Positions 2,479 to 41,795 of a stretch of 64,000 nucleotides of DNA are shown here, piece after piece. Origin of the DNA: Octopus vulgaris (Eukaryota); contig OX597828.1 of NCBI GenBank assembly GCA_951406725.2, forward strand, positions 19,344,001-19,408,000, given 5' to 3'. The notes under the pieces were generated by a model. The model did not search any database. It had not been told where the DNA came from and saw only the letters and a list, made by a program, of their open reading frames with translations. The position numbers were made by a program, and so were the translations under genes. The first letter of the stretch is position 1. The number at the start of each line of letters is the position of its first letter.

Positions 2479-4556
2479 ATGGATTGTTTAATGGTATTTG
2501 GAATCATCTATGAAAATAAAACAAAGGTTTCTCTTCTCTATGCCACACATACAATTTCCATTAATGGATTTACATCACACGTCAACATCGAGGCTGAATA
2601 TATAAATGAAAGCCAACACAAAACAGAAGCTAAGTTTGTTTTCCCTGTGGAAGAAGACAGTGCCGTATATAAATTCGAAGCTAAAATTGGTGATGTCCAT
2701 TTAGTTGCCAAATCTAAAGACAAAGATGTTGCCAAAAAGGAATACAAACAAGCTGTAGATAAAGGTCAGTCTGCCATTTTGTTGCGAGAGACAAGTACAT
2801 CTGGCGATATTTTTGAGTATAGTTTAGGTAATATTCCAGCAAATGAAAAGATCCATTTACAAATATGCCTTGTTTCTGAACTTTCTTGTGAAGTTGATGG
2901 GGCAGTGAAATTTCATATGCCATTTGTGCTTAATCCCAGATATGGTCTTAAACCTGCAGATGAAAATTATCAAAATGCACCTAAACCAAAAAAGTTTAGT
3001 TTCAATGCCTCTGTCAACTGGAATTCACAAATCAAAGACATCAAATCAGAACATCCAGTTAAGGTGGATTATCAGGATAACAAGTGTCATGCTACTGTGA
3101 GAATGGCAAAGGAATTCAGTTTTGAGAAAGACCTTCTTCTGCAAGTGTACTATGAAGATGTAGAAAAACCACAAGTAATTTTAGAGAAAGGAGATGAGAA
3201 TTCTAAAGGAATGTTTTCTAAAGATATTATGATGATAAATGTGTTTCCAGAACTTCCGCAAGTAAAACAATCTGCCGCTAATGATTATATTTTTGTTATT
3301 GATCGCTCAGGAAGCATGAGTGGAGAGAAAATTGAAGCAGCAAAAGATACTTTGTTACTTTTCTTAAAAGGTTTACCTTTGGGTTGCTCATTTAATGTTA
3401 TCAGCTTCAATAATGATTTTGAATTTCTGTTCAAAGAAGGAAGCCGAGAATATAGTGAAGATTCTCTGAATGAAGCATTGAAATTCCAGAAAAATCTATA
3501 TGCTTCGGGAGGGACAGAAATTCTTAGTGTCCTGAAATCACTCTCTGACAAAAAAACCATTTCAAAATTTCCATCGACAAGTATTCTTAATAACTGATGG
3601 TGAAGTCTACAACACAAACGATGTCATTCAATTGGTCAAGTCACAAGTAAACAACACACGATACTTCACAATTGGTATTGGTTCTGGAGCTTCTACAGAA
3701 TTGGTCAAAGGTATTGCATGAAACTGAGACTAGTTGCAAAAATGTGAAATTGAATCTTTGTGGTAAAATTGATGATGCAGACTTTTCACTTGATTTTGAA
3801 GCAAGATTGTTGGGACAGAATAATAAGGAAATGACAATACACCGTCTTTGTGTGAAAAGGAAAATACAGGAATTGGAATTAAATAAAGATTTGGGTAAAG
3901 GTGATGAAATAAAATCAGAGATTATCGATTTGGGTACAATGGCTAATTTAGTTTCAAAGTACACAAGTTTTGTTGGTTTGGATGAACATGTTCGATTGGA
4001 TTTTCAAATGGCCTCTATAGCAATTCCAAAATATACAGCCAAGTGTGCTTGTGCTTCTTCGCCAATAGTAAGAATGTTCCGTAAGTTAAAAAAAGTTTTA
4101 CAACAATCAGACCCAATGCCAGTACGTCCGAGAGAAGATATAGCTAGAATGTATACTTCCATAAATAATTCCTTAAGTATAAATGCTGAGAATTCAAGAC
4201 AGTCGCCTCACTCAGACTTAACCTCTTCAAAGTGAACAATTAAGGACATTTTAACAGGTTTGTTTGATCTACAAGCTTTCTCTGGTTTCTGGAATCTAGA
4301 TGATCAATTGGCTCAAGCTCTCAATATTTCTCTTAAGGATCTGAACGATGAGAATCCATCTGTTAGTGATAAAGTATGGGCTACAGGTCTTGTTGTTGCT
4401 GTACTAAGAGAAAAATTAGCTTCCCAGCATTGTGAATGGGAATTAATGGAAAAGAAAGCAATTGATTGGCTGGAATCTCAGAATATACAACCACTGTATT
4501 CAGAGAAGTTACTAGAAAAAGCTACAAACTTCATAAAAAACAAAATGGTTGCCTAG
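2479..4556 (+). pseudogene. VWA5A: VWA5A-like (VIT-vWA) paralog, copy 1, disrupted
   Basis: Acceptor ttttctatacAG ends at 2462 and ATG is at 2479 (MDCLMVFG). ORF pieces 2428-3597, 3672-4235 and 4260-4556 align to copies 2/3. Lesions: an extra A in the run at 3550-3556 (7 A vs 6 in copy 3), a 218-bp deletion at 3714-3717 relative to copy 2, and an in-frame TGA at 4233-4235. Ends at the same FIKNKMVA* terminus. Confidence 0.88.
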
Positions 4557-4671
4557 CGATTTCTGTTTATTTCATATTTTAAAACTTTCACTACTGTATA
4601 ACTGAGAAAAATACCTTAACATTTTAACTTGTATATCATTACTTTTACTCAGCTAAATCCTGTAACAGATC

Positions 4672-4718
4672 AATAAACAAATATTTTATATATCTATACA
4701 GCTGTAAAATATAATAAA
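4672..4718 (+). terminator. Polyadenylation signals of copy 1
   Basis: AATAAA at 4672 and 4713; the second is conserved in all three 3' UTRs. Confidence 0.55.
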
Positions 4719-5034
4719 ATATAAAACCATAATCCTTATATTTATTGAACTTGTGTTATTTTCTGTGTGCAATATGAATATATGAAGTTTAAAGACATTC
4801 AAACTGAGTACTGAACATTTAACTCTGCATTGGAACTGAATTATTTAATTTTTTTCTTTTTTAAGCTGTAGGTGCAATAGTCACCAATCTTGGCTTTGCT
4901 TTTTATGCTTTTGATGTCCATAAAAGAATGGCCAATTAAGAAATAAAATTGATTAAATCAATTACATACTCTATACACATTTCTGGCCCTGTACACATTT
5001 TGTGAATCGGAATTTTAATGTAACTATGTGTATA

Positions 5035-5260
5035 GGCAATGGCCTAGTGGTTAGGGCAGCGGACTTGCGGTCGGAGGATCGCGGTTTCGATTCCCAGACC
5101 GGGCGTTGTGTGTGTTTATTGAGCGAAAAAAACACCTAAAAGCTCCACGAGGCTCCGGCAGGAGGTGGTGATCCCTGCTGTACTCTTTCACCACTCTAAA
5201 GGCGGTGCTCCAGCATGGCCGCAGTCAAATGACTGAAACAAGTACAAAAATAAAAAATAA
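5035..5260 (+). mobile_element. tRNA-derived SINE (family C head) fused to a family A tail
   Basis: A box tggcctagtggttag and B box ggtttcgattccc. Homologous minus-strand copies at 22972-23260 and 61173-61426. The 3' end switches to the ggcggtgctccagcatggccgcagtcaaatgactgaaacaag tail. Confidence 0.75.
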
Positions 5261-5609
5261 AAAAAAATACCATATCTCGTCTTTTATCCACAACTCATTT
5301 TGGTCGTTGGACTGCAGCCATTCTAAGTCACAACCTAAAAGGCATTTTTTAGTTAAACACATCAACCCCAAAACTCATTTATTTTAAAATTGGGTAGTTA
5401 TTCCATCAGTCTCTATGGTAGAACAGCTAAATTATGAGGGGGTATAATAAACACACACACACACAAAATGGGCCTCCACCCTGTTCCTGTGTACCAAACA
5501 CACTCACAAGGAATTGGTCTGCTCTCGGCTATAATAGAAGACACTTGCTGAAGGTATTGTCTTGTGGGACTGAACCCTAAATATCATGGTTGTAAAGTTT
5601 TGTAACTAA

Positions 5610-6365
5610 AATAATTTTTTGTAACTAAACACTTTCAAACTTCGTATACTGGTAGAATGTGTCACATAAAACATCTTTTACTCTTGGCGCTGTTGAGAAA
5701 ATTCTCAAATTTTGGAAGTTATTTCTTGTTAAAGTTGTCATATTTCGGTAATTTCAACCAATCAATGACGTGTATTCAGATGAATAAAATTAATGCTGTT
5801 GTTTGTTATCAACAACTTCCGGCAGTGTATATTTCATTTGTCGTTTTATTTATGACATATTTAATCTCAGTTACATTTGTATGAATAAACGAGTGTATCT
5901 GAAGCATGTTTACTTCATGGCACCACCATAACCGTTCATCCTTTATTTTTCATGATTTTCCGTAACTCTAACCCTAAAACGACAACCCTAACCCTAAAAC
6001 TGTAAACCTAATTCTAAAACCCTAACCCTAACCCTAACCCTAAAACCTTAACCCTAACACCTTAAAGCTAAAACCAGTACAAATGCATGAAGAATGTCAA
6101 AAATAACAGTGACAAACACCGCCGATAGTTGTAGTTAACAAACGACAGCAGTAATTTTATTCAGCTGAATACACGTCATTGATTGGTTGAAATTACCAAA
6201 ATACGACAACTTTAACAAGAAATAACTTCCAAGATACAGGATTTTCTCAACAACGCCAAGATTAAAAGATGTTTTATGTGATACATTCTACCAGTATACG
6301 AAGTTTGAAAGTGTTTAGTTACAAAAAATTCTTTTTTAAATCTGTCAGTCAAAAGGTAAAGATCC
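5610..6365. mobile_element. Fold-back MITE with ~230-bp inverted arms and an internal (CCCTAA)n tract
   Basis: 5620-5850 is the reverse complement of ~6105-6330. Degenerate taaccc repeats at 5965-6070; the element ends in GATCC. Confidence 0.8.
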
Positions 6366-7320
6366 CCCTTCACTTTCTGGAAAAATGTCTAGATAGACTA
6401 TTTTCATTTAAAAGTTATTAGTGTGGTACACCCAAAAACTGAAGAATCTGAAATAAAAAAAAACCGAAAGGACGTTACGCAAAATAATGAAAACAAAACA
6501 ATAGTGTTGCTATAGTGTGCAAACCAGCTGGGAAAAGTTTTATCAAAATCGATTCACAGAAAACTATGAAATCCTAAATTTCACTCCTAAGCTATTAGTG
6601 TGGTTCTAGGTGTATAGTAGCAATGCTCCCCGGCGTTGCCAAGGTGTAATGACCTACAGTCACATTGTTTCTTTCTTACGGGCAAAATTAGCACACGTGG
6701 AACATGAAGCAAACAACTCTACCTTATGAACATGCTTTTCGGTCATTTTGTGATTAACAACCCTGCAGTTTCCGTTTACCAAATTCAGTCAGATATCTGT
6801 GGTTGATCTAGGGGCTATAGTAGAAAACACTTGCCCAAGCTACCATGCAAAGCGACTGAACATGGAACCATATGGTTGGGAAGCAAACTTCTCAACTACA
6901 CAGTCATTCGTCCCACTATGTCTCCAAGTTAGAAGTTCATCAAGCAGAGATCTATAAAATAAATGCCAGATTGAAATACGTATTGAGGTGAGTATGATCA
7001 ATTAAATTTTTGAAGGCGATACATCATCATGGCAACAGTCGAAAGAAAACCAAACAAAATAATGTTTAACGACTTAATGGTTTCAAATTTAAGGTAATGG
7101 ATTACTAACCACAGGATAATGAGTTCAAGACTTCGTATTGAACTTCCACTCTATACGGTAACAGTATGTGTGCATCTCAGTCTACTTGACTTCCAACAAT
7201 TAACAATTGTAATCTGAAGTGGGATGGTTGGCAGTAAGAAAGATGACCAGATTTCTTTAAAAATTATTGTGCAAAATATTCCGAGAGAAAGTATTTTTTT
7301 CCCCACAACAAAACACACAT

Positions 7321-7357
<37 letters not shown>

Positions 7358-7464
7358 TGTGTGTGTCTGGTAACTTGAGCTACTACAAATATAGCAAATC
7401 TCTCTTAAAACACCCTTTCATCAAAAGAAACACACACATTTACAGTATTTCAGGGTTTAAAAAA

Positions 7465-7670
7465 ATTCACCTCAATAGACGTCATTGATTGGTTGAAATT
7501 GTCGAAATGCAAGAAATTAAACAACAAATAGCTTACAAACTACAGAATTCTCTCAAGAAAGCCAAGAGAAAAAGATGTTTTATAAACACATTCTACCGGT
7601 ATACGAAGTTTAAAAGTGTTTAGTTACAAAGAAATTATTTTAAAAATCTGCCGGTCAAAGCGAAAAGATA
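7465..7670. mobile_element. Isolated arm of the same fold-back MITE family
   Basis: gacgtcattgattggttgaaatt...cacattctaccggtatacgaagttt...ggtcaaagcgaaaagat; reverse complement of 48203-48410. Confidence 0.75.
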
Positions 7671-8366
7671 ACTAAACCTCTGAAAACAGTGCCCCAACAT
7701 GGCAGATGTCCAATAATTAAAACAAGTAATTGAATAACAGACTATACGTTACAATGTATGCAGGATAGACCCCTTGCATTGAGGAAACCCCCTCCAGGAT
7801 TTGATCACAGAATCTACAATGACAAACATGGCACACAAGAGATATACGATTAGCTATCAACACCAACACCAAATCTTTGGCTTATTCACAGCTTGGTTTA
7901 ACTATGATAATATTATTTACACAAGGATACATATTGCATCCGTTTACACCAAATGAAACTATTTCGTTTCGCAATTAGTTTTTACATTCCTCATTTTTTG
8001 TTGTTTTTCCAATCGAAATATGTTTATTGTAGTATATCACTATATATATAAAGAGGAATATATATATATAAATATTATTATTTTTGTGTCTCTCTGTTTG
8101 TCTCAAAGCCGTAGGGCGCCTGTGTCATTCATGTTTTCAATCGTTACTGTCCCCCAAAAAGATTTTTTGTTTCCTGTTCGTCTCTGTTGCGTTTCATTCT
8201 TTCCTTATGTGGCTGGCTGATTCAGAGCGGATCTCAGAATTAAACAGCCGAAATCTGCGATGAGGGATCAGTTTCTGACTGAAGAATGAAGGCTTGAATG
8301 ACTTGTTTGTCTTTTTGTTCGTCTCTTCGTGTATTTCACGTTATTTATTTATATAAAGGTCTATTA

Positions 8367-8411
<45 letters not shown>

Positions 8412-8799
8412 CATAAAACCACATTAAAATACAAATCCAAACCGAACGCAAACAGGAGCGAAGAGGAGAAAAAAGGAAATAAAAAGTAAGAAAAATATCA
8501 ATTGAACACCAAGAGGTCCCAAGTGGTTGTAGAAAGAGGTTTTCGTAATTGTCAATATAAATGTATTGATGGGCGTTGCTGGCCTCTCCCACGCCTCCTC
8601 TCTCTTTCTCTTTCTCTCTCTTCGTCCTCCCCATCTCTGTCTAATTTGTTGTTGGTGGGGCACTATTATATAATCTGGTTCATCATCTGCTTTGGTATTA
8701 TACTTAAAATTTGTTTTATTAATGAATTTACGTTTCTCGCTTAACCGGGTTGCTCGTACTTTTCTGTTGATGCATTTTACGTGGAGAACAGAACTTCTA

Positions 8800-8992
8800 A
8801 GCTATTAAGATATTCAACCAATCTGTAAGATTACTTTCCACTTAATATATACGCAGTTCCGTTTCGTACAATTTCTTTTGGCAGAAAAGAAACCCGGATA
8901 TATAGCCGTTGTTTATTTTATCCTCTTGAATTATAAACTTTAAACTTATCAACGAGACATATTTCACCTTTTATTTCTCTCAACAGGTAAGT
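8800..8992 (+). promoter_or_regulatory. Candidate promoter and non-coding first exon with splice donor CAG|GTAAGT
   Basis: Consensus donor at 8984-8992 in apparently unique sequence. CCAAT at ~8818, an AT-rich TATA-like motif at ~8844, and an IRF/ETS-like agttccgtttcg at ~8855. The VWA5A-like exons begin with acceptors and need an upstream leader. Confidence 0.35.
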
Positions 8993-10861: not shown

Positions 10862-10930
<69 letters not shown>

Positions 10931-15837: not shown

Positions 15838-18800
15838 CAGGGGCGTGCACTCTCAGCAATGCAAGGTATGCGCTGCATGCCTTCCTTGTTTCAAAGAAAA
15901 TACGTCCAGTTGTTTTAGAAATATTGTCTCCACTTCGTACATCTGCTTTGATAAATGCTTTTAGAAGATCGCATGATACACACTCCCTCTCTGTCTGTAT
16001 TAGTTTGTCCTTCCTTCCCTCTCTCTCTCTCTATCTTAGTGACTCGATAAATTTATCGCTTGTCATGCGTTGGGAAGACAGCATGAGTCCCTTCTCTCTG
16101 TCTTTGATAGTTTGTCCCTTCTCCCTCTTTCTTTGTTTAAAAGATATACTACGAGGAATGGTCACCCCCTTCTCTCTCAGCGATTCGACAAATTCAGTTT
16201 GGCGTGTCATGCTGTGCTTAGATCGCATATCACGCCTCTGGCTATTTTGACCGGAACACGAGCCGTCCCATAATTCTTGTTTTAGCCAGCTGAAATGTTG
16301 GAATAGCCTTCGCATGTAAGTTTGAAATTTTTTATCCAAAACATCCGTTTGCACTATCATATTTTTAGAAAGTTTTGAAAGCAAAAATATCTACATTATA
16401 TTTCTTATTTCAGAAATAGCTAATTAATCTTAAATTAATTTAACAAAGGGTATTTTTCCGTTTTGTTGAAATTGACTTAAAATTTACGCCGGCGCTTCCA
16501 CGTGGGTCCTTAAATAAGAGCAGCCTTTTTAAAAATGAGTGAAATGTGTGCTATAAACGATATTTTGAGAACTAGTTTTTCTAAAAGGGACTTCGATGGG
16601 AAAAAATTAATTATAAATCGCGGGAGACCAACACCGAATTTACCTAATTTGCGAAGCTACAACAAGAAATTCACGAGACAATTTCAGGTTAATTCGTATG
16701 AAAAGAAGAAATGGTTAACTGGAAGTGTTGCTCTTAATAAATTATTCTGTTGGCCGTGTTTACTTTTTGGCTTAGAAAAAAATGTTTGGAATGATAAAGG
16801 CTATGATGATTTAAATAATTTACATATGGCTATGCTAAAGCACGAGCGTTCTCAAAGGCATATAAAATGTTTGATAGACCTTAAAATATTCGGGAATGTT
16901 CGCATAGACTTACAATTAGATGCACGTAAAAATCAAAGCGTACAACAGCATAATGAGAAAGTTCGACGAAACAGATCCATTCTGCAACGATTGATCGATG
17001 TTGTTATTTTTTTAGGCCTCCAGGAATTATCGTTTCGGGGTCATTTTGAATCTGAAGGCTCTAATAATCGGGGAAATTATAAAGAACTCGTTTATTTGAT
17101 CAGTAAGTATGACAAACAAATGGAAAGTCATTTAGATACAGCTTCTATCTTCACTGGTCTGTCGAACAGAATTCAAAATGACTTGATCGAAGCAATTCAT
17201 AAAGTTATGTTGAATGAGATGCAGAAGGAAATTGACCAAGCTAAGTTTGTTTCTATTCTTGTTGATGAGACATCTGATGTCTCAGCATCTTCACAACTGT
17301 CAACAGTTTTACGTTATGTTACAGAAGACTGTGTGACGAAAGAACGATTTATCGGTTTTTGTGATGTTAGTGCAGATCGATCTGCAAATGCTTTATCTGA
17401 ACATGTTTTTAAATGCATTGAGACGTGGGAATGTGGAAACAAATTGATTGCGCAGACATATGATGGTGCCGCTACAATGGCAGGACAACTAAATGGGTTA
17501 CAGGCAAAAGTAAGAAAGAAATATGAATGTGCGATCTTTATTCATTGTTGTGCCCATATCCTAAATTTAGTTCTTTCACAATCATGCTCTGCTATGAAAG
17601 AATGCAAGATATTTTTTTCTACAATAAATGAACTCAGTACATTTTTTACGAAATCACCGAAAAGGACTAATGCATTAGATAATATTGTTAAAAAAAGATT
17701 TCCGAAAGCAACAGCAACTAGATGGAATTACTCCTCACGTCTTATTATTACCACAAAGGAAAATTATAATTTCATAATCAGCCTTTTTGAACACATCATT
17801 GAAAATCCTGAAGCATGGGATGAGACCACCATAAATTCAGCAATTGGATTCTTACACATTTTAAAAGCTCCTGATTTCTTATTTTTGTTAGAGGTATTCA
17901 GTGACATTTTTTCTTTTACTGACGTCTTATTTAACATACTCCAGAGTAAAAGTCATGACATAGTGTATTGTAAACAGCAAATAGATAAAACTAGAACTGT
18001 ACTCGAAAACAAACTTGATAATTTTTCAGTCTTTTATGATAGGTTAGGGGAAAAATATGGAGTCGATGCAGGAATCGGAATTCAGAGATCCAAGAATATA
18101 TCTATTGATCCCCAACGACATTATAGAACGCTTTATAACAAAATTATAAGTACAATAGTTGACCAAATAAAAGCACAATATTCATCCTTAGAAGAGTTTA
18201 AATTCATGGAACTTTTGAATTTCAACAAAGTTGATGAGTATTGCAAACAATTTCCTGTGGACTCTTTAGATTCTTTAAGAACAACTTATGGCAGATTTTT
18301 TGATGTAATACGATTACAAAGTGATGTATTCAATGAAAGATTTTAAAAAACCAAGTGTAAGTCATTTAATGAGTTACATTAACAGCACTGATCTTGTTGA
18401 AGCTATGCCAGAACTCTTCAATCTGTGCAAGTTGATTTTGACAATTCCGTCTACCACTGCTTCTGTAGAGCGATCCTTTTCTGCATTAAGTAGAATTAAA
18501 ACATACCAAAGAAATGCGACAGGAGAAAGAAGACTGTCTGGGTTAGCACTAATGTCAATTGAAAAAGATTTATTACAAGAATTGATGAAAAGAGAAGATT
18601 TCTATGAAAATGTGATAGATATATTTGCCCAGAAAGATCGAAGAATTGAATTAATTTATAAATGAGCTAAGTAACATTTTAAAACATTAAAAAAAATATA
18701 TATTAAAGAGCATATATTACAGGTTTTGCTTAGTGTTTGTTATAACGTAAGGTTCGACCTTCTTACATCAGTATTGTTTCGCAGGAGAAATGTTTTGATT

Positions 18801-28176: not shown

Positions 28177-29860
28177 CGCCACCCTGATCTTAAAGATCAC
28201 AATCTCTCCGCTCCATGTTGTAGTCCACCATCCAACCGGGAGAGCGCCTTGCTCGTCGAGATCTTCTGAAGCTGGGCTCCTCGTTCTCCCCCTCTCCAGA
28301 ATCATCGTCCGTCAAAGCAACAATCTTGCGAAGGTCCAAGACGTGTCGTGGTGTTCCATCTACGGATACGTTGCTTCTGGAATTGATCGCCGTCACCGTT
28401 CCTCTGCTCCATTGAGACGTACAGCACGCCTTTGGTGGCTTGACCCAGACTTCCTCCCCTATTTTCACGCGAACGGGTCCCTTCTCTTCCTCGTGACCCT
28501 CCGGTACTTTGCTCGGGTGCCTACATTCATATTTGAACACAGCTCTCTGCGGCATAGATTCCTCAGCTTGTCCGGATCGGGGAGACAAGTTGTACCAAAA
28601 AAACTGCTTCAAGTGGCGAAATGTGCCCTCTTTCCGCTATGGCCTTGACTGTCCGATGGTGCCTCTCCACGATCCCGTTACCGCTCAGCCTATACGCTGC
28701 TCTGAACAAGCGTCGCACATTCCACCGATCAAGCATAACCCTCAATGCTTCCGAACGAAACGCTGCCCAGTTGTCCATCAGTAGTTCTTCCACGGGACCT
28801 CTCTCTAAAAATATCCCGTTCAGGATCTGCGCAATCTCGTCAGCAATGCCCGATCTCAACTCCTCCAAATGGCCAGCCGGCCCGGCCCGCAGTCGATCAT
28901 GGAGAGGTACATTTGCTGACGGTAGTGTGTCACATCCACAGCTAGCCTTTTCCAGTCCTGCTCCACGGAAAGGCTTCCCTGTTCATGCCCACACGGAGCA
29001 GGGTTGATGGACTGACACCTGTCACAGCTCCCGACCACCTTCCGGACGCTTCTCCTAGTGACGTCAGCATCAATTTTTTTTGCCAGATACAGGGTCCTGT
29101 CCACACCCAGGTGATGCATATCATGCAGTTTCTTCAGTTCAGAGTCATCCAACCAACACGCCACAGCTATCCCTTTCCGGGCCTCCTCCAGTTCTTCCAA
29201 CCACGCTCTTTTCACCCTGGTCAGTACGTCCGCCCTGTTTTTCTCCGAAGGCTCGAAAACCACGTTCAGCTTCAGTCCGAACTCGGCGATCAATTCACCT
29301 AGAACTCCTAGACGGCGCTTCACTAACATCTCCACAGCACCTTTCGTCCGCACTCTCCTGTCACCGGTGATCACCGATCCTACCCAGCCAAGCACAGTGG
29401 CCGAATCCGTCCGGATTTCAATTGTGCGCAGCCCCCATTTCAAGGCCAAGTTCACCCCTTTCAGCAGCGCGTCTAATTCGGCGACATTGATGTGGTTGAA
29501 ATCATCTGCTTTCCAAAGCCAGGCCACGTCCTCCACCGCAGTGCCTTCGATTGCCAATACCACCCCTATCGCTATACTGCTAGCATCACACCAGACGGTC
29601 CCGCATTTCGTCTTGGGCACATACCAGTTCCCCCCGACCGGGTCTTCCGCTCTTGTCCTCTCTAGGATTTCCTGCATCATCGCCACCGTCCCTTCTCCCA
29701 CCTTGTCGCCCCACCTCTCTCCTTCTGCTCGTCTCTTGGTGTAACTACACGCCGTGCGCAGCCATCCAGCGATCGGGTAGTGACCGACCAACATCCCACA
29801 CACCGAGAACAGCTCTCTCCTGCTGACGCTGGAACTGCATGGCATCTTGGAACTCATTGT
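27898..29860 (-). mobile_element. Ty3/gypsy LTR retrotransposon, 5'-truncated (RNase H, integrase, PPT, 3' LTR)
   Basis: Minus ORFs give WCDASSIAIG, NVAELDA and RTDS (RNase H); HDMHH...CDRC, AVDV, MDN and NGIVER (integrase), with frameshifts near 28860 and 28600. A purine-rich tract abuts an LTR (TG...CA) at 27898-28176. GC-rich relative to host. Confidence 0.88.
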
Positions 29861-30398
29861 TTCAACAACAATAACATACCAACAAGAAACAGTAACAAAT
29901 TCTCCCTCATATCACACTCAGCCATCTCTAAATGAGGAGAATCACACTATATAATGTAGAACTAGATAAGCTGTGCATGTACAGAGATGGGATTGTCATG
30001 GGCAATACACTTTTCCCTATCATTGTGGAGGAACAAGGTCAAGCTGGAGCAAAATATGATTGTCTCTGACAACATTGTCATCATTTGTGTACCATCTCTA
30101 CCTCATTCACCAGCACAAGGGCACAACCAGTGGCAACAGTACTTTTTGTAGTAGTAGGAGTTGTAGCAGCAACAGCAGTGGTAATAGATTCTTCATACTT
30201 CCACATACACATACATGTGCACCTCCAAGAACATTATCAGGATAACTGCTGTCAATGGACCTGGCAATTAGAAGTCATATTTACTTAGCACTATCATCTC
30301 TCGCCAAAAATAAAATAACCTTTTAAATGCAACATGTATATATCATTTCTAAATAAGATGTTTCTCCTTCTATTTTATCTAGCACTTTCATTGCAAAC

Positions 30399-32690
30399 AT
30401 GAATAGACTAATGGTATTTGGAATCATCTGTGAAAATAAAACAAAGGTTTCTCTTCTCTATGCCACACACACGATTTCCATTAATGGTTTTACGTCACAC
30501 GTCAATATCGAGGCTGAATATATAAATGAAAGCCAACACAAGACAGAAGCTAAGTTTGTTTTCCCTGTGGAAGAAGACAGTGCCGTATATAAATTCGAAG
30601 CTAAAATTGGTGATGTCCATTTAGTTGCCAAATCTAAAGACAAAGATGTTGCCAAAAAGGAATACAAACAAGCTGTAGATAAAGGTCAGTCTGCTATTTT
30701 GTTGCGAGAGACAAGTACATCTGGCGATATTTTTGAGTATAGTTTAGGTAATATTCCAGCAAATGAAAAGATCCGTTTACAAATATGCCTTGTTTCTGAA
30801 CTTTCTTGTGAAGTTGATGGGGCAGTGAAATTTCATATGCCATTTGTGCTTAATCCCAGATATGGTCTTAAACCTGCAGATGAAAATTATCAAAATGCAC
30901 CTCAACCAAAAGAGTTTAGTTTCAATGCCTCCGTCAACTGGAATTCACAAATCAAAGACATCAAATCAGAACATCCAGTTAAGGTGGAATATCAGGATAA
31001 CAAGTGTCATGCTACTGTGAGAATGGCAAAGGAATTCAATTTTGAGAAAGACCTTCTTCTGCAAGTGTACTATGAAGATGTAGAAAAACCACAAGTAATT
31101 TTAGAGAAAGGAGATGAGAATTCTAAAGGAATGTTTTCTAAAGATATTATGATGATAAATGTGTTTCCAGAACTTCCGCAAGTAAAACAATCTGCCGCTA
31201 ATGATTATATTTTTGTTATTGATCGCTCAGGAAGCATGAGTGGAGAGAAAATTGAAGCAGCAAAAGATACTTTGTTACTTTTCTTAAAAAGTTTACCTTT
31301 GGGTTGCTCATTTAATGTTATCAGCTTCAATAATGATTTTGAATTTCTGTTCAAAGAAGGAAGCCAAGAATATAGTGAAGATTCTCTGAATGAAGCATTG
31401 AAATTCCAGAAAAATCTATTTGCTTCGGGTGGGACAGAAATTCTTAGTGCACTGAAATCACTCTCTGTCAAAAAACCATTTCAAAATTTCCATCGACAAG
31501 TATTCTTAATAACTGATGGTGAAGTCTACAACACAAACGATGTCATTCAATTGGTCAAGTCACAAGTAAACAACACACGATACTTCACAATTGGTATTGG
31601 TTCTGGAGCTTCTACAGAATTGGTCAAAGGTATTGCCCGCGCAGGGAAGGGACAAGCAGAGTTTGTGATGACAAATGACAACCTTAAGGCAAAAGTTATG
31701 CGTTTATTAAAATTGTCAAAGCAACCATTTGTATCTTCGGTTTGTCTCTCTGCTAAACATGGTGAAAACAATAAAGAATTATCCTTTATTTCAGTTCCAG
31801 AAAGGCTGCCATGTATTTTCAGTGAAGAAAAATTAATCCTGTATCTAGTTTTGCATGAAGCTGAGACTAGTTGCAAAAATGTGAAATTGAATCTTTGTGG
31901 TAAAATTGGTGAAACAGACTTTTCACTTGATTTTGAAGCAAGTCTGTTGGGACAGAATAATAAGGAAATGACAATACACCGTCTTTGTGTGAAAAGGAAA
32001 ATACAGGAATTGGAATTAAATGAAGATTTGGGTAAAGGTGATGAAATAAAATCAGAGATTATCGATTTGGGTACAATGGCTAATTTAGTTTCAAAGTACA
32101 CAAGTTTTGTTGGTTTGGATGAACATGTTCCAGAATGTATGCCAATTATGCGTTTAGCAAAACCACAATTATACAGTATGCTTTATGTCGATGCTGAAGG
32201 ATTGGACGACATTGGTAAAGAAATGGATGATGGAGAAATATGTTTGGATTTATCTGATGTTGATTTTGTGGATTCTTCTGGTGCTGATTCTGTGGATTCA
32301 AGTTGCATGCCTCCCTCATTTAAAGTACCACGTGTGACTGACGAGGAATCCTTTATGTCTCTTGGGTCAACAAATAAAGATATTTTAACATGTTTGGTTG
32401 GTCTACAAGCTTTCTCTGGTTTCTGGAATCTAGACGATCAGTTGGCTCAAGCTCTCAATATTTCTCTTAAGGACCTGAACAAAGAGAATCCATCTATTAG
32501 TGATAAAGTATGGGCTACAGCTCTTGTTGTTGCTGTACTAAGAGAAAAATTAGCTTCCCAGCATTGTGAATGGGAATTAATGGAAAAGAAAGCAATTGAG
32601 TGGCTGGAATCTCAGAATATACAACCAATGAATTCAGAGAAGTTACTAGAAAAAGCTACAAACTTCATAAAAAACAAAATGGTTGCCTAG
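30399..32690 (+). CDS. VWA5A: von Willebrand factor A domain-containing protein 5A-like (VIT + vWA + variable linker + PARP4-like C-terminal helical domain), copy 2, 763 aa, single coding exon
   Basis: Uninterrupted 763-aa ORF. VIT motifs (EAKFVFP, AVYKFEAKIG, LGNIPA), MIDAS DRSGS...SGGTE...ITDGE, RYFTIGIG, LVSKYTSFV, and C-terminal LQAFSGFW...WATAL...WELMEKKAIEWL. Polypyrimidine acceptor AG at 30381-30382; AATAAA at 32841. Confidence 0.92.
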   Translation: MNRLMVFGIICENKTKVSLLYATHTISINGFTSHVNIEAEYINESQHKTEAKFVFPVEEDSAVYKFEAKIGDVHLVAKSKDKDVAKKEYKQAVDKGQSAILLRETSTSGDIFEYSLGNIPANEKIRLQICLVSELSCEVDGAVKFHMPFVLNPRYGLKPADENYQNAPQPKEFSFNASVNWNSQIKDIKSEHPVKVEYQDNKCHATVRMAKEFNFEKDLLLQVYYEDVEKPQVILEKGDENSKGMFSKDIMMINVFPELPQVKQSAANDYIFVIDRSGSMSGEKIEAAKDTLLLFLKSLPLGCSFNVISFNNDFEFLFKEGSQEYSEDSLNEALKFQKNLFASGGTEILSALKSLSVKKPFQNFHRQVFLITDGEVYNTNDVIQLVKSQVNNTRYFTIGIGSGASTELVKGIARAGKGQAEFVMTNDNLKAKVMRLLKLSKQPFVSSVCLSAKHGENNKELSFISVPERLPCIFSEEKLILYLVLHEAETSCKNVKLNLCGKIGETDFSLDFEASLLGQNNKEMTIHRLCVKRKIQELELNEDLGKGDEIKSEIIDLGTMANLVSKYTSFVGLDEHVPECMPIMRLAKPQLYSMLYVDAEGLDDIGKEMDDGEICLDLSDVDFVDSSGADSVDSSCMPPSFKVPRVTDEESFMSLGSTNKDILTCLVGLQAFSGFWNLDDQLAQALNISLKDLNKENPSISDKVWATALVVAVLREKLASQHCEWELMEKKAIEWLESQNIQPMNSEKLLEKATNFIKNKMVA

Positions 32691-32846: not shown

Positions 32847-32864
32847 ATATAAATCCATAATCCT

Positions 32865-33314: not shown

Positions 33315-34889
33315 GTCATCTAAATTGTAACCTTCCATCAAAATATTATTCTAATTTATGTCCCAAACACCAGTTTAGTAATCCTTTCTACTGGAAGTAC
33401 AAGGCCTCAAATTTGTGGGAAGGGATTAAGTCGATGACATCGACCCCAGTACGTAACTGGTACTTATTTGATTGACCCCGAAAGGATGATGAGCAAAGTC
33501 GACCTTGGTAGAATTTGAACTTAGAATGTGATGACAGATGAAATACCGCAAAGCATTTTGCCCAGGGTGCTAAAGATTCTGCCAGCTTGCTGCCCTAAAA
33601 CACCAGCTTAATATTGACAAAGTTATATCACTAAATTCTTCATTATTTTGAAAATTAATTGGAACAAAGGCAATGCACTTCAGCAGAGATATGGTAGAGA
33701 ATTAGTTAGAGATATTTAAACAGAGTTCTCAGCATTTAACACTACTAAATTGAGGAAAACAATCATTATTTAGCTGTAGGTTCACATTGTCTTTGGTCAT
33801 TATATGTTTCTTTACTGGCCACACAGGGCTGAAATACAGAGGGGAAAAATACAAAGTAGAGCTTTTCTTTTGGGGAAGAAGAAGAAAAGAAGAAAAAAAA
33901 GTTGGTCGAATTCCGATCAAAAGGGATCGTGAAAAAAAAAATGGTAGTGGGAGTGTAATCAATAGGGATCGTGTATCACAGAAATGTCAATGTAAAAAGA
34001 GAAAACAGATTAAGTTTATCTATGGAAAGAAAAGCCTACAGAAAAGACCACGGAAACCTTGGGCAATAGTGTCATGCAAAAATAAACACATTACAGTAAG
34101 TGGCTCTCTTTTCCCCTTTTTTTTTGGTTCGTAGGATTATGCTCAAGCTGGCTCTGTCATTCACACATGCCATCCTTGCTACATTCACCCATCTTTTTTT
34201 TAAACATTCACTAGACAAAACTTCCCTCTCTACTCTCACCTTCCTCTTCAAGTAATACTTAAAGAAGTTGATGAGAGATTCACCAGAGAGGAAAGTGTTT
34301 GTCTCTAGACCATTCAGTCATGTCCACCATACACATTCTTTCACTATAGCCACAAGTACAATGAAAATGGTTCTTCCTTCCAGTTTCAAGGAAGGTGGCA
34401 CGACAATATTCACGATAGACTCGGTTGATAAACTGACTCATCTTTTGTCATTAGAAATTCTTTAAAGAAACAGGTTTTAATAAATAAATATCTGAGACAA
34501 ATAATTGTATAAAACTCTATCCTACGTTTATCACATCTGTATTTTATCTTGGTTCATCATTACTATCATTCTTATGATATTAGAAACTATTTGAAAAGCC
34601 TTGACATTTATGTGTACATCTTATTCTGGATTTCTTTTAAGAGATTTGCTCTACTCACATCTTCAAGTCAGTGCCCCAGTATGGTCGCAGTTTAATAACT
34701 GAAACAAGTAAAAGAATGAAAATTAAGATGAATCCATTTTAGTTTCATGATGGGATAATATAGAACAAACACTAAAGACCAAAAGTACAACTTGTTGGGT
34801 AGTGTTGTAAGACACAGGAATATGTTGGAAGAGTTTTATCACAAAACTTATGGAATCCATATTCAGTGTTAGCAAAGTCAAATGTCTTC
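33315..34889 (+). repeat. Segmental duplication partner of 1-1495
   Basis: Direct near-identity with window positions 1-1495. Confidence 0.95.
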
Positions 34890-36160
34890 GACTTCACATC
34901 ATCATCATCATCATCATTATATTATTGTTGTTTACTTTTGTATGTGCCGTGCAGAATTCGTTAATGTATGAACAGGTCAGCTTTGCTGTCACTGACACTT
35001 ACCTGTTTCCAAGTTAGGTTATATTTCCTCATAGCCAGATATGTTTCCAGTAAGCTTTCAGAATGGAGGACAGAGCTTGTACAATATCCACACTTGTCAG
35101 TGACTGTGATATCATGTCAAACCAAGAAGACACAAAACACACACACACATACATCTATACATAGAGATTCAATTATACTGGTAAAGAAATTAGGTACAGG
35201 AATAATATCGAATATATTATATAAAATGGTTTATAATTGCTTAAATATTAAATGTAATAGTTTATAATAATGTTTATTTGCATAATTCCCTCTATATCTG
35301 CTCAACCCTTTACCTTGCAGAATCAGTCCCCTGTAAAGACAATGCAATTTAAGTTTGAATATTTTGAGCATTATACTGAGAGACTCTGGATTTTGTATTT
35401 GGGTTGCATACATATCTATAAGTGAATTCTCCCATGAGCTTCTCATTATTATAGCCATAAATGTATCCAGAGTGCAAGGAAGATGGCAGCAAAGAACGAG
35501 GGAGGAGAAATGGAAAGTATAGATGATTGTAGAGGGATAGAGAGAAAGAAAGAAAAGTGGTATTCAGTTATAAATAAATAAAAAATACACATCAAGTACA
35601 GGACATCACCGAGTGAAGAATACGTAAACACACAGAGATAAGCACAGGATAAAATACCAAAAGTCTAACTCATTCCGTTGTCAACTGTTTTACTACTCCC
35701 TATTTTGTTGTAACGAGATTGGATATCATGTATTTAGACATGATTTGATTTCAGTGGTGAAGTTTTGTGTAGGAGCAGTCACACATTTGAGAAATGATGA
35801 TAGCAGACAAATGATGAAAATATTTGCAGCAAATTCAGTGAATCACATATCGGAGGCTATTCTCTTAGAGATTTCCATCTTCTAGTTTAGATGCATTTTT
35901 ACATGGCTGTAATCATCTGAGAAATGCAAACCAGAGACCAAATCAGAAATTTGCAAATTCTTACATGTATAAATTTAATGTAATTGAATGACCTGTGCCT
36001 CCTCAGACTTCATCAAACCTTTGACAGATCTTGTTTTTCATTCTTCAGTGAATCCAGAAAGCATTCTACACACCAAGCAGTCCTGGTGTTTTTGCCAGTT
36101 TAGTCACTGAGAGTTCGGATATACACAAGTGACAATCATGACTGACCTGCCATATTTATA

Positions 36161-39153
36161 TCTGTATATATAAAAGGCAGGATGTGTGTGTGTGTGTGTA
36201 CGTGAATGTTGTTTATGCACGTCCACAAATTAGCACTCATGTCACTCCAATTATAGGAGGACATTCGTTGAATTATTTTTCTCTAGGCACCTGCAGGTAG
36301 TAGTAAAAGTCGATTTTCAACCTTAACTTTTACCAATTTTGAAGTTTGCTAACATGAGTTAAGTCCCTTTTTGCTATAGCGAAGTGAAAATGTGTGTGTG
36401 TGTGTGTGTGAGGTAGAGAAAAGTTGTGTTCTGATGTATGTGTGTGTGTGTGCGTGCGTGTGAGGGAGAGATAGAGAAAATGACAGCGTTCACCAAAAAT
36501 AGAAATGTAAAAAATTTTTTTCCTTAAACACGAGATATAGTTTTCAAATTTAGGATGTTTTTAAAAGACGCTATTTTTTATAATCAGATTATATATACTT
36601 TCTCACACAACAATTAAAATTTATTTATTTTAAATCGTTCATCTTTCTCCCCACCCCCTCTCACACACACACATTACTTTGGGTGCGAAAGAGATTTGTT
36701 TTTATTTTACGCAGAGAAAAAAGTGTTTTGTTGAGAATCCATTTATTTAACAACATAGAAGCAAAGAGGTAGGTAACAATTTGTTAGTGAATTACACAAT
36801 ATAAATGGGTAAAATTTCTGGGGCTTCACCACACCCCACCCCACCCATTTCTCGGACCACAAAAAGGGTTTTGTAGCATATTAGGAGGCCAGGGTAGTTG
36901 ATTCCCTGCAAAAAATCCAATTTTTTTTTCTTAGTGAAAATTGTGCAAGTGTTGTCTAAAAATTTGCCTGGAGTTTTTCATGGTAAATTTGAGATTAAAA
37001 AAAAATGTTTTCCATATTCTTAATCTCCATATTTTCCCACATACATTGAAAAATATATGGTGAAATTTCCGAGGCTTCCACCACACACCACCCCGTTTTT
37101 CAGACCACAAAAAGGGTCTCATAGCATATTAGTAGTTGATTCCATGCAAAAAATCCAATTTCTTTTTTTCTTAGTGAAATTCGGGCAAGTGTTAATTTAA
37201 AAATTTAATCTAAAACCTTTTTCCATTCATTTCTGTTTATGAAATTCTCTGTACGTAATTTTGCTTTCTCAGTGGTCAAGGCAAATGATGGCTGGCAAAG
37301 CAACAGTGCCCTAATGCTGACATTGGATACAATGACCTGATCTACAATAATGCGCTGATTGAAATCGAGGATGCCCTGCTCAAAATGGGTGGGGCAGCAT
37401 CGAACACATTTAGTTTGCCATCCTCATTGTGACAGGACGTTAACACACTCCCACCAAAGTTACTTCTGGAGTTGTCGTATGATGACGATGGCCTTGCAGA
37501 GTACACGAGAGTAAATGAATCGAAATTGCTCCCTGATCAGAGGCTGGTGTACGAAACTGTCATCAGTGCCATTGAAAAACAGGCAGGCGGCATTTTTTCC
37601 TCAATGCTGCTAGAGGTACTGGCAAATCCTTTGTAACACAATTAATACTTGCTAAGATTCGTCACGAGAAACAAATTTCATTAGATGTTGCTTCCTCAGA
37701 AATCGCTGCTACGTTATTGCCGGGAGGTAGGACAGCGCACTCAGCATTCAAGCTGCCTTTACATTTGGCGAGGGCCAAGGTTCCTTCTTGCAACATTGGC
37801 AAAAATTCAGCTGAAGTTCTTAGACTGTACCGTCTCATTGTATGGGACGAATGCACAATGACCAATAAGGGTGCCCTTGAGGCACTGGACCGGTCACTGA
37901 AAAGTATCAGGGATTCTACAGCTTCTATGAGTGGTGTAACTCTATTGCTTTCAGATTTCTGGCAAACCCTTTCTATCATCCCTAAAGGGAGCCGGGCTGA
38001 TAAGTGTGCGCATGCCTAAAGTCATCCGTGTTGTGGCTCCAGGTTACGACCTTAAGCCTAAGTACAAACATGCATGTGCACTTGCTTGGTGATAGCACAT
38101 CTGCAGCATTTGCTTAAGACATTTTAGCCCTTGGAGAAGGCAAGGTCCCTCAGAATGATAGGGGTGACATATCCATCTCTGAAATGTGCAACACCATGGA
38201 CAACCCTTCCGATCTTTTGGAAAAGTGTTCCTTAATCTGGAAAGTAATTATGCAGACGTCAATTGGTTCAGTGAAAGAACCATCCTGGCCCCCACAAACG
38301 TAGCTGTCAATGCTATCAACGACCAGCTCATAAGCCAAATTCCGGGTGAGGAGAGCATCTACAAATTGATTGACCGGACCTCTGACCACCAAGAAATTGT
38401 CAGTTACCCTGTCAAGTTTCTCAACTCGTTGGAGCTAGCAGGGCTTCCACTTCACATTCTTAGGCTAAGGGTTGGATGCCCAATTATGCTAATCAGAAAC
38501 TTGCTTCCGCCTAAACAGTGCAATGAGACCCACTTAGTAATCAAGTCCCCGACGCCCCTCTTGACTGAGGCCACCATTGTTACAGGATGTGGGAGGGGTG
38601 AAAATGTTTTCATTTCAAGGATGCAGCTTTATCCCTCGGTGTTGGACATGCCTTTTGACTTCTGCAGATCGCAGTTCCCAGTGAGACCATGCTTCGCCAT
38701 GTCCATCAACAAATCCCATGGCCAAACACTGTCAGTGGCAGGTATCCATTTGGGGTTTTCCATTCAATCAGGATAAAAAAATTGATAAACCGATTCCTTA
38801 TAGGATTTCTCACTAAAATTGGCTACACCCCATTTTCAACCAAAACTTTTACCAATTTTGACATATTTTACTCAAACTTGATGCCAGTATTACTTAGGAC
38901 TCATAGGATCTTTGAATGCTTTAAGTTCTCAAAAAAAAAAAAACAATCGATGAGTGGAAATAATCGATAAACCGATTCCTTATAGGATTTCCCAATCAAA
39001 TTGCCTGCAACCTATTTTCAGCCAAAAGTTTACCAATTTCAACGGATTTCTCTCAAATTTGATGTCGATGTCACTTATTTTGGTTTCAAATAAAGTGCTT
39101 GATCACTTAATAATCCTAACTTAATCCCAGCCAACGCCGGGCTATACTGCTAG
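36161..39153 (+). mobile_element. Helitron (non-autonomous, with decayed PIF1-family helicase segment)
   Basis: 5' A|TC and 3' hairpin cccagccaacgccggg plus CTAG|T, with no TSD. Empty site catatttata|tatgaat at 2350/2351 in the paralogous segment. Confidence 0.92.
37290..38755 (+). pseudogene. Helitron PIF1-like helicase remnant
   Basis: GTGKS, GGRTAHSAFKLP, LIVWDECTM, ILAPTN, LRLRVGCPIMLIRNL and QFPVRPCFAMSINKSHGQTL occur across several frames with stops. Confidence 0.88.
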
Positions 39154-39287
39154 TATGAATTAATTGTGTTGCTATTTTAATCTTTGCATGTAATTATCAT
39201 CAGGATCCTCAATAATTCCATTTTTTGGGGTTTTTTTGCATTCATTTTTGTTTATTTTTTTTTCTATACAGGTATTTTAAATACAAT

Positions 39288-41795
39288 ATGGATTGTTTAA
39301 TGGTATTTGGAATCATCTGTGAAAAGAAAACAAAAGTTTCTCTTCTCTATGTCACACACACGATTTCCATTAATGGATTTACGTCACACGTCAACATCGA
39401 GGCTGAATATATAAATGAAAGCCAACACAAGACAGAAGCTAAGTTTGTTTTCCCTGTGGAAGAAGACAGTGCCGTATATAAATTTGAAGCTAAAATTGGT
39501 GATGTCCATTTAGTTGCCAAATCTAAAGACAAAGATGTTGCCAAAAAGGAATACAAACAAGCTGTAGATAAAGGTCAGTCTGCCATTTTGTTGCGAGAGA
39601 CAAGTACATCTGGCGATATTTTTGAGTATAGTTTAGGTAATATTCCAGCAAATGAAAAGATCCGTTTACAAATATGCCTTGTTTCTGAACTTTCTTGTGA
39701 AGTTGATGGGGCAGTGAAATTTCATATGCCATTTGTGCTTAACCCCAGATATGGTCTTAAACCTGCAGATGAAAATTATCAAAATGCACCTAAACCAAAA
39801 GAGTTTAGTTTCGATGCCTCTGTCAACTGGAATTCACAAATCAAAGACATCAAATCAGAACATCCAGTTAAGGTGGAATATCAGGATAACAAGTGTCATG
39901 CTACTGTGAGAATGGCAAAGGAATTCAGTTTTGAGAAAGACCTTCTTCTGCAAGTGTACTATGAAGATGTAGAAAAACCACAAGTAATTTTAGAGAAAAG
40001 AGATGAGAATTCTAAAGGAATGTTTTCTAAAGATATTATGATGATAAATGTATTTCCAAAACTCCCACAAGTAAAACAATCTGCCGCTAATGACTATATT
40101 TTTGTTATTGATCGCTCAAGAAGCATGAATGGAGAGAGAATTAAAGCAGCAAAAGATACTTTGCTACTTTTCTTAAAAAGTTTACCTTTGGGTTGCTCAT
40201 TTAATGTTATCAGCTTCAATAATTATTTTGATTTTCTGTTCAGAGAAGGAAGCCGAGAATATAGTGAAGATTCTCTGAATGAAGCTTTGAAATTCCAGAA
40301 AAATCTATATGCTTCAGGTGGGACAGAAATTCTTGATGCACTGAAATCACTCTCTGACAAAAAACCATTTCAAAATTTCCATCGACAAGTATTCTTAATA
40401 ACTGATGGTGAAGTCTACAACACAAACGATGTCATTCAATTGGTCAAGTCACAAGTAAACAACACACGATACTTCACAATTGGTATTGGTTCTGGAGCTT
40501 CTACAGAATTGGTCAAAGGTATTGCCCGTGCAGGGAAGGGACAAGCAGAGTTTGTGATGACAAACGACAACCTTAAGGCAAAAGTTATGCGTTTATTAAA
40601 ATTGTCAATGCAACCATTTGTATCTTCGGTTTGTCTCTCTGCTAAACATGGTGAAAACAATAAAGAATTATCCTTTATTTCAGTTCCAGAAAGGCTGCCA
40701 TGTATTTTCAGTGAAGAAAAATTAATCCTTTATCTAGTTTTACATGAAGCTGAGACTAGTTGCAAAAATGTGAAATTGAATCTTTGTGGTAAAATTGGTG
40801 AATCAGACTTTTCACTTGATTTTGAAGCAAGTCTGTTGGGACAGAATAATAAGGAAATGACAATACACCGTCTTTGTGTGAAAAGGAAAATACAGGAATT
40901 GGAATTAAATGAAGATTTGGGTAAAGGTGATGAAATAAAATCAGAGATTATCGATTTGGGTACAGTGGCTAATTTAGTTTCAAAGTACACAAGTTTTGTT
41001 GGTTTGAAGCAATGTATTCCAGAATGTATGCCAAAGTCCTGCATGGTTTCTTCTTCACCACCACCACCACCTCAACCTCTACAAGCTTCTAGTTGCCCAG
41101 CCAATCAGTCCGATCTTGATTTAGAAGAAGACTTTGAATATATAAATGTTGATTGTGTGGATTCTGGTGCTGATTTTGGGCATTCTGACTTTGAGTTTGT
41201 CGATTTAAATTGCTTGTCTCAGACATTTAGAAGACCATCCAGTATGAGTGATGAGAAATCGTTTCTCACTTCTGGGACAAAAAATAAAGAGATTTTACCA
41301 TGTATGATGGGGGAAGCAAATCAGAATTGTTATTTGGAAAATGTAGTTGACAATTCTGGGATTTTTTATAAACATGATTCTGGTACTGATTCTGTGGGTT
41401 CCAATTGCTTGTCTCGGACATTTAGAAGATCATTAAATGTGAGTGATGTAGAATCCTTTATGTCTTCTGAGACAACAATTAAGAACATTTTAACATGTTT
41501 GGTTGACTTACAAGCTTTCTCTGGTTTCTGGAATCTAGACGATCAATTGGCTCAAGCTCTCAATATTTCTCTTAAGGATCTGAACAAAGAGAATCCATCT
41601 GTTAGTGATAAAATATGGGCTACAGCTCTTGTTGTTGCTGTACTAAGAGAAAAATTAGCTTCCCAGCATTGTGAATGGGAATTAATGGAAAAGAAAGCAA
41701 TTGTTTGGCTGGAATCTCAGAATATACAACCACTGAATTCAGAGAAGTTACTAGAAAAAGCTACAAACTTCATAAAAAACAAAATGGTTGCCTAA
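39288..41795 (+). CDS. VWA5A: VWA5A-like, copy 3, 835 aa, single coding exon
   Basis: ORF 39225-41795. The likely start is ATG 39288, after acceptor ttttctatacAG ending at 39271 (same 5' junction as copy 1). MIDAS DRSRS; longer linker; AATAAA at 41951. Confidence 0.92.
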   Translation: MDCLMVFGIICEKKTKVSLLYVTHTISINGFTSHVNIEAEYINESQHKTEAKFVFPVEEDSAVYKFEAKIGDVHLVAKSKDKDVAKKEYKQAVDKGQSAILLRETSTSGDIFEYSLGNIPANEKIRLQICLVSELSCEVDGAVKFHMPFVLNPRYGLKPADENYQNAPKPKEFSFDASVNWNSQIKDIKSEHPVKVEYQDNKCHATVRMAKEFSFEKDLLLQVYYEDVEKPQVILEKRDENSKGMFSKDIMMINVFPKLPQVKQSAANDYIFVIDRSRSMNGERIKAAKDTLLLFLKSLPLGCSFNVISFNNYFDFLFREGSREYSEDSLNEALKFQKNLYASGGTEILDALKSLSDKKPFQNFHRQVFLITDGEVYNTNDVIQLVKSQVNNTRYFTIGIGSGASTELVKGIARAGKGQAEFVMTNDNLKAKVMRLLKLSMQPFVSSVCLSAKHGENNKELSFISVPERLPCIFSEEKLILYLVLHEAETSCKNVKLNLCGKIGESDFSLDFEASLLGQNNKEMTIHRLCVKRKIQELELNEDLGKGDEIKSEIIDLGTVANLVSKYTSFVGLKQCIPECMPKSCMVSSSPPPPPQPLQASSCPANQSDLDLEEDFEYINVDCVDSGADFGHSDFEFVDLNCLSQTFRRPSSMSDEKSFLTSGTKNKEILPCMMGEANQNCYLENVVDNSGIFYKHDSGTDSVGSNCLSRTFRRSLNVSDVESFMSSETTIKNILTCLVDLQAFSGFWNLDDQLAQALNISLKDLNKENPSVSDKIWATALVVAVLREKLASQHCEWELMEKKAIVWLESQNIQPLNSEKLLEKATNFIKNKMVA

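Follow-up and report, generated by a model that had tools for sequence, protein, structure and literature searches.

We analysed a 64,000-nucleotide stretch of the Octopus vulgaris genome (contig OX597828.1 of assembly GCA_951406725.2, positions 19,344,001 to 19,408,000; hereafter the window) that carries three VWA5A-like genes in tandem. All three are on the plus strand, with coding starts at 2479, 30399 and 39288, and are built from a VIT-vWA core, a linker and a C-terminal domain. As a sequence-only reading of this DNA had noticed, the scaffolds on either side of the linker are nearly identical (96.7–97.8% in pairwise comparisons of the 5' coding region). The 3' flanks are 89–93% identical. 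The pattern of a constant scaffold with a variable linker is real, though it had been partly misread locally, since three working and near-identical paralogs were described but only copies 2 and 3 are intact.

Copy 2 (30381..32690) is a single-exon open reading frame of 763 amino acids at 30399-32690, preceded by a splice acceptor AG at 30381-30382. Copy 3 (39270..41795) is likewise a single exon, with 835 amino acids at 39288-41795 and an acceptor AG at 39270-39271. Copy 1 (2479..4556, acceptor AG at 2461-2462) is broken. One extra A in the run at 3550-3556 destroys the frame and leads to a stop at 3595-3597. In addition, 218 bp are deleted between 3716 and 3717, which removes the region just after the vWA domain; the deletion ends have a few bases in common, as is often the case in real deletions. 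The net shift (+1, −218) leaves the frame unrestored, and the linker itself contains an in-frame TGA at 4233-4235 (codon 85). Because of these lesions the basic linker of copy 1 is not translated from this haplotype.

Contigs of four sequencing runs, three of which (X1, X2 and X6) are guessed to be RNA, were placed on 2200-4900. An X1 contig matches 4175-4293 with zero differences, stop included, which makes an assembly error an unlikely source of the linker stop. Contigs of 4/4 runs contain a stop-free linker of the basic type, with G at 4233; X1 has the window version as well. Neither the deletion junction nor the extra base was found in any contig over 2200-4900, which says nothing either way because scaffold contigs may derive from paralogs.

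In Pfam, copies 2 and 3 matched VIT (expectation value, E, 3e-28) and VWA_3 (E 9e-24), and no other families. The MIDAS (metal ion-dependent adhesion site) of the vWA domain is intact in both copies (D275, S277, S279, T346 and D373), at 31221-31235 in copy 2 and 40110-40124 in copy 3. Its five residues are invariant in 87/87 aligned homologs, apart from one gap at one position in one of them. The C-terminal domain spans 95 amino acids from the LQ anchor (32403-32687 and 41508-41792) and is conserved across homologs, whereas the linker is not. Judged from profile alignment and hydropathy, there is no room for a signal peptide: profile position 5 already aligns to PARP4 residue 610, inside the fold, and no 19-residue window exceeds a hydropathy of 1.61. 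The earlier view that the proteins are cytosolic is thereby borne out. The genes belong to the VWA5A family and are not ITIH4, PARP4 or alpha-2-macroglobulin. Self-cleavage at Asp-Pro of the ITIH type was considered and rejected, as no DP dipeptide occurs in 4/4 octopus proteins examined.

Paralogs and relatives were drawn from protein databases, which hold a fourth paralog (P0002). The nearest named relatives are VWA5A-like proteins of O. vulgaris, O. sinensis, O. bimaculoides and Argonauta. Internal gaps leave the O. bimaculoides models P0012, P0015 and P0017 without a vWA domain; these may be broken genes or fragments from the assembly and are weaker as orthologs. A spacer at 1..1495 (plus strand) repeats the DNA 3' of copy 2 (33315-34889) with identities of 98.4% and 95.6%, suggesting that a two-gene unit was duplicated and that another copy may lie upstream of the window.

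Linker types and their transcripts

The linkers have the lengths and positions first described for them, 96 codons in copy 1 (3981..4268), 95 in copy 2 (32118..32402) and 167 in copy 3 (41007..41507). The basic-type linker of copy 1, with its one stop, is a mosaic that starts like O. sinensis P0003 and ends like P0005. The P0003 linker is a mosaic too and ends like the acidic type. A host-protein origin of the basic linker was rejected, since Atlas matches reached ≤0.83 only. Copy 2 has an acidic linker, with DFVDS at 32262-32276 and DSVDS at 32286-32300 in a 24-bp tandem repeat. The Pro-rich and acidic linker of copy 3 contains DCVDS at 41151-41165 and the internal duplication that had been reported earlier (41192-41306 against 41387-41501, 76.5% identity). 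The linkers do differ sharply but are closer to one another than had been described: those of copies 2 and 3 align over their last 44 codons.

Rates of nonsynonymous (dN) and synonymous (dS) substitution were computed from window DNA only. Between copies 2 and 3 the scaffold has a dS of 0.053 and a dN/dS of 0.31 (569 codons), and the C-terminal domain has a dS of 0.062 and a dN/dS of 0.32. The 44 alignable linker codons have a dS of 0.27 and a dN/dS of 1.1, and the repeat units of the copy 3 linker compared with each other a dN/dS of 1.0. Because linker dS exceeds scaffold dS, the linker types are older than the likeness of the scaffolds. This suggests that gene conversion or unequal crossover homogenised the sequence to either side of the linker.

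Linker types also cross species boundaries. Each type in the window has close counterparts in other Octopus species. The last 40 amino acids of the copy 3 linker are 100% identical to O. sinensis P0122 and 85% to O. bimaculoides P0017, but only 52% to copy 2, and those of copy 1 are 92% identical to O. sinensis P0005 but 22% to copy 2. The C-terminal domains of the same Octopus copies are 88–100% alike.

Changes specific to copy 3 are clustered round the MIDAS loop at 40059-40337 (residues 258-350) and are shared with O. sinensis P0122. They comprise G278R, S281N, K284R, E286K, D313Y, E315D, K319R and S350D. Positive selection on this face of the vWA domain was considered and not accepted; residues 195-384 have 14 nonsynonymous and 7 synonymous codons, and a less recently converted tract fits equally well.

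The sequencing contigs suggest that the linkers are retained in transcripts. An X6 contig runs continuously from the linker into the C-terminal domain (3987-4297), and in a second one the scaffold continues into the beginning of the copy 3 linker; in these contigs, therefore, the linkers are kept. Removal by splicing found no support, since the sole joint across a linker, with GA..TG ends, can be accounted for by a different type of linker. RNA editing as the source of variation was rejected because A>G is equally the most frequent difference in X19, a large run. Two linker types absent from the window were met at loose contig ends at 3980 and 4029: a P0003-like mosaic in X1, X2 and X6, and an additional copy-3-like linker start in X19. 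The repertoire is therefore larger than the three types of the window.

A non-coding leader exon, whose 3' end and GT donor lie at 8957..8992 on the plus strand (exon end 8986), is present in a single copy in the window. In an X6 contig, 30 letters that are unique in the window (8957-8986, then the GT donor) are joined to an acceptor of the copy 1/3 type. Over 2459-2598 this contig differs from copy 1 at 7 positions, the same number as copy 3. In contigs of X1, X2 and X6, the last four letters of the leader exon precede the copy 2 acceptor. On this thin evidence, the simplest reading is that a single leader is spliced to copy 2, at a distance of 21 kb, or to copy 3, at 30 kb, though the copy 3 junction was seen in a single contig and another leader may lie outside the window. 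Within the inferred leader intron lies a hAT-type transposase in two open reading frames (DUF4371 and hAT dimerisation; 16535-18665, plus strand). The database model P0121, which joins part of this transposase to copy 2, is probably a gene-model artefact.

Protein pieces in the linkers of relatives

The array had been proposed as a cephalopod system, which does not hold. From 277 proteins, 230 with both anchors were obtained, and 215 linkers were kept after dropping 16 fused or multi-copy models. These linkers range from 30 to 962 amino acids and in net charge from −78 to +28, with core and tail lengths that are narrow. Bacterial relatives possess the same core, variable linker and C-terminal domain. 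A variable linker across the 215 relatives, pan-eukaryotic as well as bacterial, is therefore a trait of the family and not specific to cephalopods. At the bacterial loci (L001-L080) a small gene lies directly upstream in 57/80, and 3/3 of those tested are MerR-type regulators. One VIT-vWA cluster (Atlas rank 15 for P0004) has 43% viral members, mostly Nucleocytoviricota, and is noted as a lead only.

At least 16/215 linkers contain a recognisable piece of another protein, in every case between the two anchors. The count is a lower bound, as it covers 143 proteins with precomputed Pfam lists and 28 of 132 new representatives, which were picked by eye for scanning. Synaptobrevin pieces are the most frequent (7/215; bivalves and Stenamoeba), 3 of them above and 4 below the Pfam cut-off. 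Ubiquitin pieces occur in 3/215 (mussel-clade proteins and Anaeramoeba ignava), and outside the 215 in two more proteins, P0118 and P0144 (Paratrimastix). FG repeats are found in 2/215, both from crayfish. Single linkers contain Nup98 FG repeats with GLEBS (Solemya), an actin piece (Anaeramoeba flamelloides, two records), a histone H4 piece (Haliotis) and an FHA domain (a protein from the bacterial clade). When profiles were made of the ubiquitin and synaptobrevin pieces, they matched linkers only, neither cores nor tails. Of 493 candidates searched for shorter fragments, 2 proteins had them.

Neither the ubiquitin nor the synaptobrevin carriers group into one clade. In a tree built from the cores of 212 rows, the carriers of ubiquitin, of synaptobrevin and of RLRGG are each spread over the whole tree. 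The approximately unbiased test rejected a single clade in a 36-row tree for ubiquitin carriers (p-AU 1e-4) and synaptobrevin carriers (p-AU 6e-38), where rows had been chosen after the first tree, groups were defined by linker content and P0144 is a long branch. The pieces recur across species and diverge from their source protein, which argues against pure artefact as their origin. In the alignment the mussel ubiquitin insert has a much diverged fold but keeps the full cleavage tail. Tail-like RL[RTS]GG motifs number 10, against 0.14 in shuffled sequences, and are present in carriers without the ubiquitin fold (P0110, P0112, P0114 and, three times, P0269).

Several other linkers were noted individually. 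In Haliotis asinina the H4-like piece is present in isoform X2 and not in X4, apparently of one gene (P0077 and P0031), suggesting a spliced-in cassette. The linker of rotifer P0209 has 5 heptads, against 1.2 when shuffled, which we take to resemble the tail of RNA polymerase II. The P0035 linker has a weak WH2 match with polyproline (E 0.039), and that of P0233 has tandem Tyr-Glu-Cys-Val repeats. An FtsZ-tail-like motif in P0248, noticed by eye, was unmatched as a pattern in 27 bacterial linkers, though L007 and L062 look similar.

A proposed bait loop and rival readings

Papers are cited below by their PMC numbers. VWA5A (BCSC-1) and Dictyostelium Vwa1-5 (clade B2, PMC10539598) are like the octopus proteins in having VIT, a MIDAS-bearing vWA domain, a long variable loop and a C-terminal domain of about 95 amino acids, as well as in lineage-specific expansion and in the database names of relatives. 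They differ in that each octopus gene has only one coding exon, to which a shared leader is apparently spliced, and in the discrete octopus linker types with DxVD/S or basic motifs. Models of Vwa1 from Dictyostelium and of human VWA5A have the C-terminal domain, at the end of a long disordered loop, lying against vWFA, and the paper proposed autoinhibition; the accessible part of it does not describe decoy content in the loop (PMC10539598).

ITIH4 has a homologous VIT-vWA core (E 2.5e-11; 2.4e-31 by profile), an intact MIDAS and an exposed region right after the core. It is cut in that region and then binds the protease in a MIDAS-dependent manner (PMC7793589, PMC11538491); MIDAS is needed for complex formation (PMC7793589). 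The octopus linkers are at the position equivalent to this protease-susceptible region, but trapping has been demonstrated for ITIH4 alone. Furthermore, ITIH4 is a secreted plasma protein with a C-terminal beta-propeller, whereas the octopus proteins begin directly in the fold and end in a predicted helical domain. PARP4, the closest solved relative (E 1e-37), is laid out in the same way, with the core followed by a disordered segment that evolves fast and then by a helical C-terminal domain. The octopus proteins lack its BRCT, WGR and catalytic domains, and their linkers are 95-167 amino acids long compared with about 360. Positive selection acts on the corresponding segment of PARP4 (PMC4038475), and it was suggested that viral cleavage occurs there, with VWA5A named as the one similar human protein (PMC10450202). 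With alpha-2-macroglobulin only the idea of a variable bait is shared, as no macroglobulin or thioester family was matched by Pfam.

Plant nucleotide-binding leucine-rich repeat receptors (NLRs) with integrated decoys and the protease tripwires NLRP1 and CARD8 combine a constant receptor with host-target mimics or cleavage sites in a variable region. The octopus proteins are alike in having a constant scaffold with possible mimics or cleavage sites, but no NLR, FIIND or CARD module is present, no module for a signalling or defence output was identified, and their linkers hold motifs and not domains. Captured host pieces were found in relatives, none of them in the window's own linkers.

From these comparisons the linker, the loop that connects the VIT-vWA core with the helical domain at the C terminus, may be an exchangeable bait. 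Cutting or binding of the bait would free the C-terminal domain from the vWA domain, whose metal-binding site would then clamp the attacking enzyme, as ITIH4 does in plasma. The steps are taken from homologs, namely C-terminal docking from AlphaFold models (PMC10539598) and cleavage-triggered capture from ITIH4 (PMC7793589). We put the chances of such a cytosolic, ITIH4-like bait and trap at about even. Architecture, MIDAS, linker motifs and captured pieces fit the protease trap first proposed for these genes; the working trio and cephalopod specificity that went with it do not stand, and positive selection found no support.

More tentatively, the whole VWA5A family, from bacteria to mammals, may be ancient cytosolic decoy-traps and the intracellular counterpart of ITIH4. 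Its one slot would display the most-attacked proteins or cleavage sites (ubiquitin with its tail, synaptobrevin, Nup98, actin, histone H4 and caspase sites), and engagement of the slot would unlock a metal-dependent clamp. The octopus array would then be a recombining bait repertoire, with alternative last exons from a shared leader. Pathogen enzymes commonly target the proteins captured in this way. The linker is of more interest as a candidate decoy slot of the whole family than as a repertoire of three genes, and it is the capture of host-protein pieces in the slot of relatives that is new here. In the open-access literature we found no account of the VWA5A linker slot as bait or decoy, nor of the octopus array.

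The linker motifs of octopods bear on the same reading. DxxD[GSA] is the pattern cut by executioner caspases. In 9 octopod linkers it occurs 12 times, against 1.6 when shuffled, and DxVD[GSA] 9 times against 0.14, although the DxVD pattern was picked after inspection, the 9 linkers are related and shuffling ignores acidic clustering, all of which reduces the weight of these counts. Copies 2 and 3 have no DxxD[GSA]-type site outside the linker, and each has one that starts at residue 622. The motif is conserved among orthologous linkers. DxVD/S occurs three times in P0017 and is kept in the copy-3-type P0294 (72% identical overall). Basic-type linkers have no DxVD/S but do have paired Arg/Lys. 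We infer that the acidic octopus linkers are candidate substrates of caspase type, and the basic ones of proteases that cut at Arg or Lys. Transcripts of caspase-3, -6 and -7 are reported from O. vulgaris hemocytes in PMC4199593, the accessible part of which does not mention the VWA5A-like gene.

A doubtful alternative, though one that several results suit, is an ordinary birth-and-death array in which the linker is an inert, drifting tether that resists conversion once diverged and occasionally gains fragments of abundant genes, the scaffolds being alike through recent duplication and conversion. Linkers are variable in all lineages, copy 1 is a pseudogene and the paralogs P0008, P0009 and P0010 have linkers of 40 amino acids, as expected of such a tether. 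The same findings on substitution that favour it also count against a bait. A linker dN/dS of about one is equally expected from neutral drift. Between copy 3 and O. sinensis P0122 the linker has 0 substitutions and one added Pro, whereas 4 scaffold residues differ, so the copy 3 linker is not changing fast now, and the rapid positive selection proposed for the linker is not borne out.

Other points weigh in the same direction. The window linkers match no host protein or domain in Pfam and Atlas searches, about 200/215 linkers have no recognised captured piece, and the ubiquitin insert of P0254 is missing its final Gly. Very abundant genes are the source of the captured pieces, and such genes are the likeliest to give accidental insertions or chimeric models, so chance must be weighed; insertions are also best tolerated in a flexible loop. 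The tree tests may be compatible with a gain in the distant past followed by many losses. Bacterial relatives have no recurring defence neighbours at 80 loci, and PADLOC gave 0/4. An inert tether does not readily explain why the same few pieces were gained repeatedly, why the ubiquitin tail is kept while the remainder diverges, or why tail motifs are present without the fold and in tandem. Nor does it account for DxVD/S multiplied by tandem duplication and kept across species, or for linker types that outlast species splits.

It is unlikely, in our estimate, that the linker is a non-cleaved address that binds SNAREs, Rae1-type proteins, ubiquitin readers or Atg8-type proteins and so places the scaffold, for example near ubiquitin-ligase complexes. 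Dictyostelium Vwa1 does co-purify with an F-box protein and cullin (PMC10539598), and several relatives have N-terminal UBA or ZZ domains. Motifs like the LC3-interacting region are enriched in octopod linkers (9 against 2.9 shuffled) but not family-wide (47 against 47.2), and orthologous adaptors usually stay with one partner, whereas the modules seen here are exchanged from paralog to paralog. Highly improbable is a vault cargo adaptor whose C-terminal domain docks like the MVP-interacting domain of PARP4 while the linker merely spaces or releases the core, for although PARP4 is the best solved relative, and the C-terminal domain aligns weakly to PARP4 1553-1641 and is reported to resemble the MVP-interacting domain in structure (PMC10450202), that alignment is insignificant alone (i-E 1.3), human VWA5A has no residue equivalent to Arg1689 (PMC10450202), the accessible part of PMC12280208 mentions VWA5A 0 times and bacterial relatives possess the same C-terminal domain.

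If the loop is a bait, the family would be a readable catalogue of the host proteins attacked in each lineage. A bait would also account for the fast evolution that PARP4 shows in one segment, and would extend ITIH4 trapping to the cytosol. VWA5A is a candidate human tumour suppressor, and we know of no established mechanism for it or for the homologous region of PARP4. With near-identical scaffolds, naturally swapped loops and defined candidate sites of caspase type, the octopus copies make the bait idea directly testable.

Other elements in the window

A GC-rich remnant of a long terminal repeat retrotransposon (28190-29857, minus strand; DUF7047, RVT_3 and integrase zinc-binding) ends about 520 bp before the copy 2 acceptor. 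A reverse-transcriptase fragment lies at 58682-59287 on the minus strand (RVT_1, below the Pfam cut-off). Long low-complexity satellite blocks occupy parts of 48600-56150 (48.6-50 kb and 51.9-56.1 kb), with strong strand skews and, by composition, partly inverted with respect to each other. An internal, degenerate telomere-like repeat, (AACCCT)n, is located at 5963-6075.

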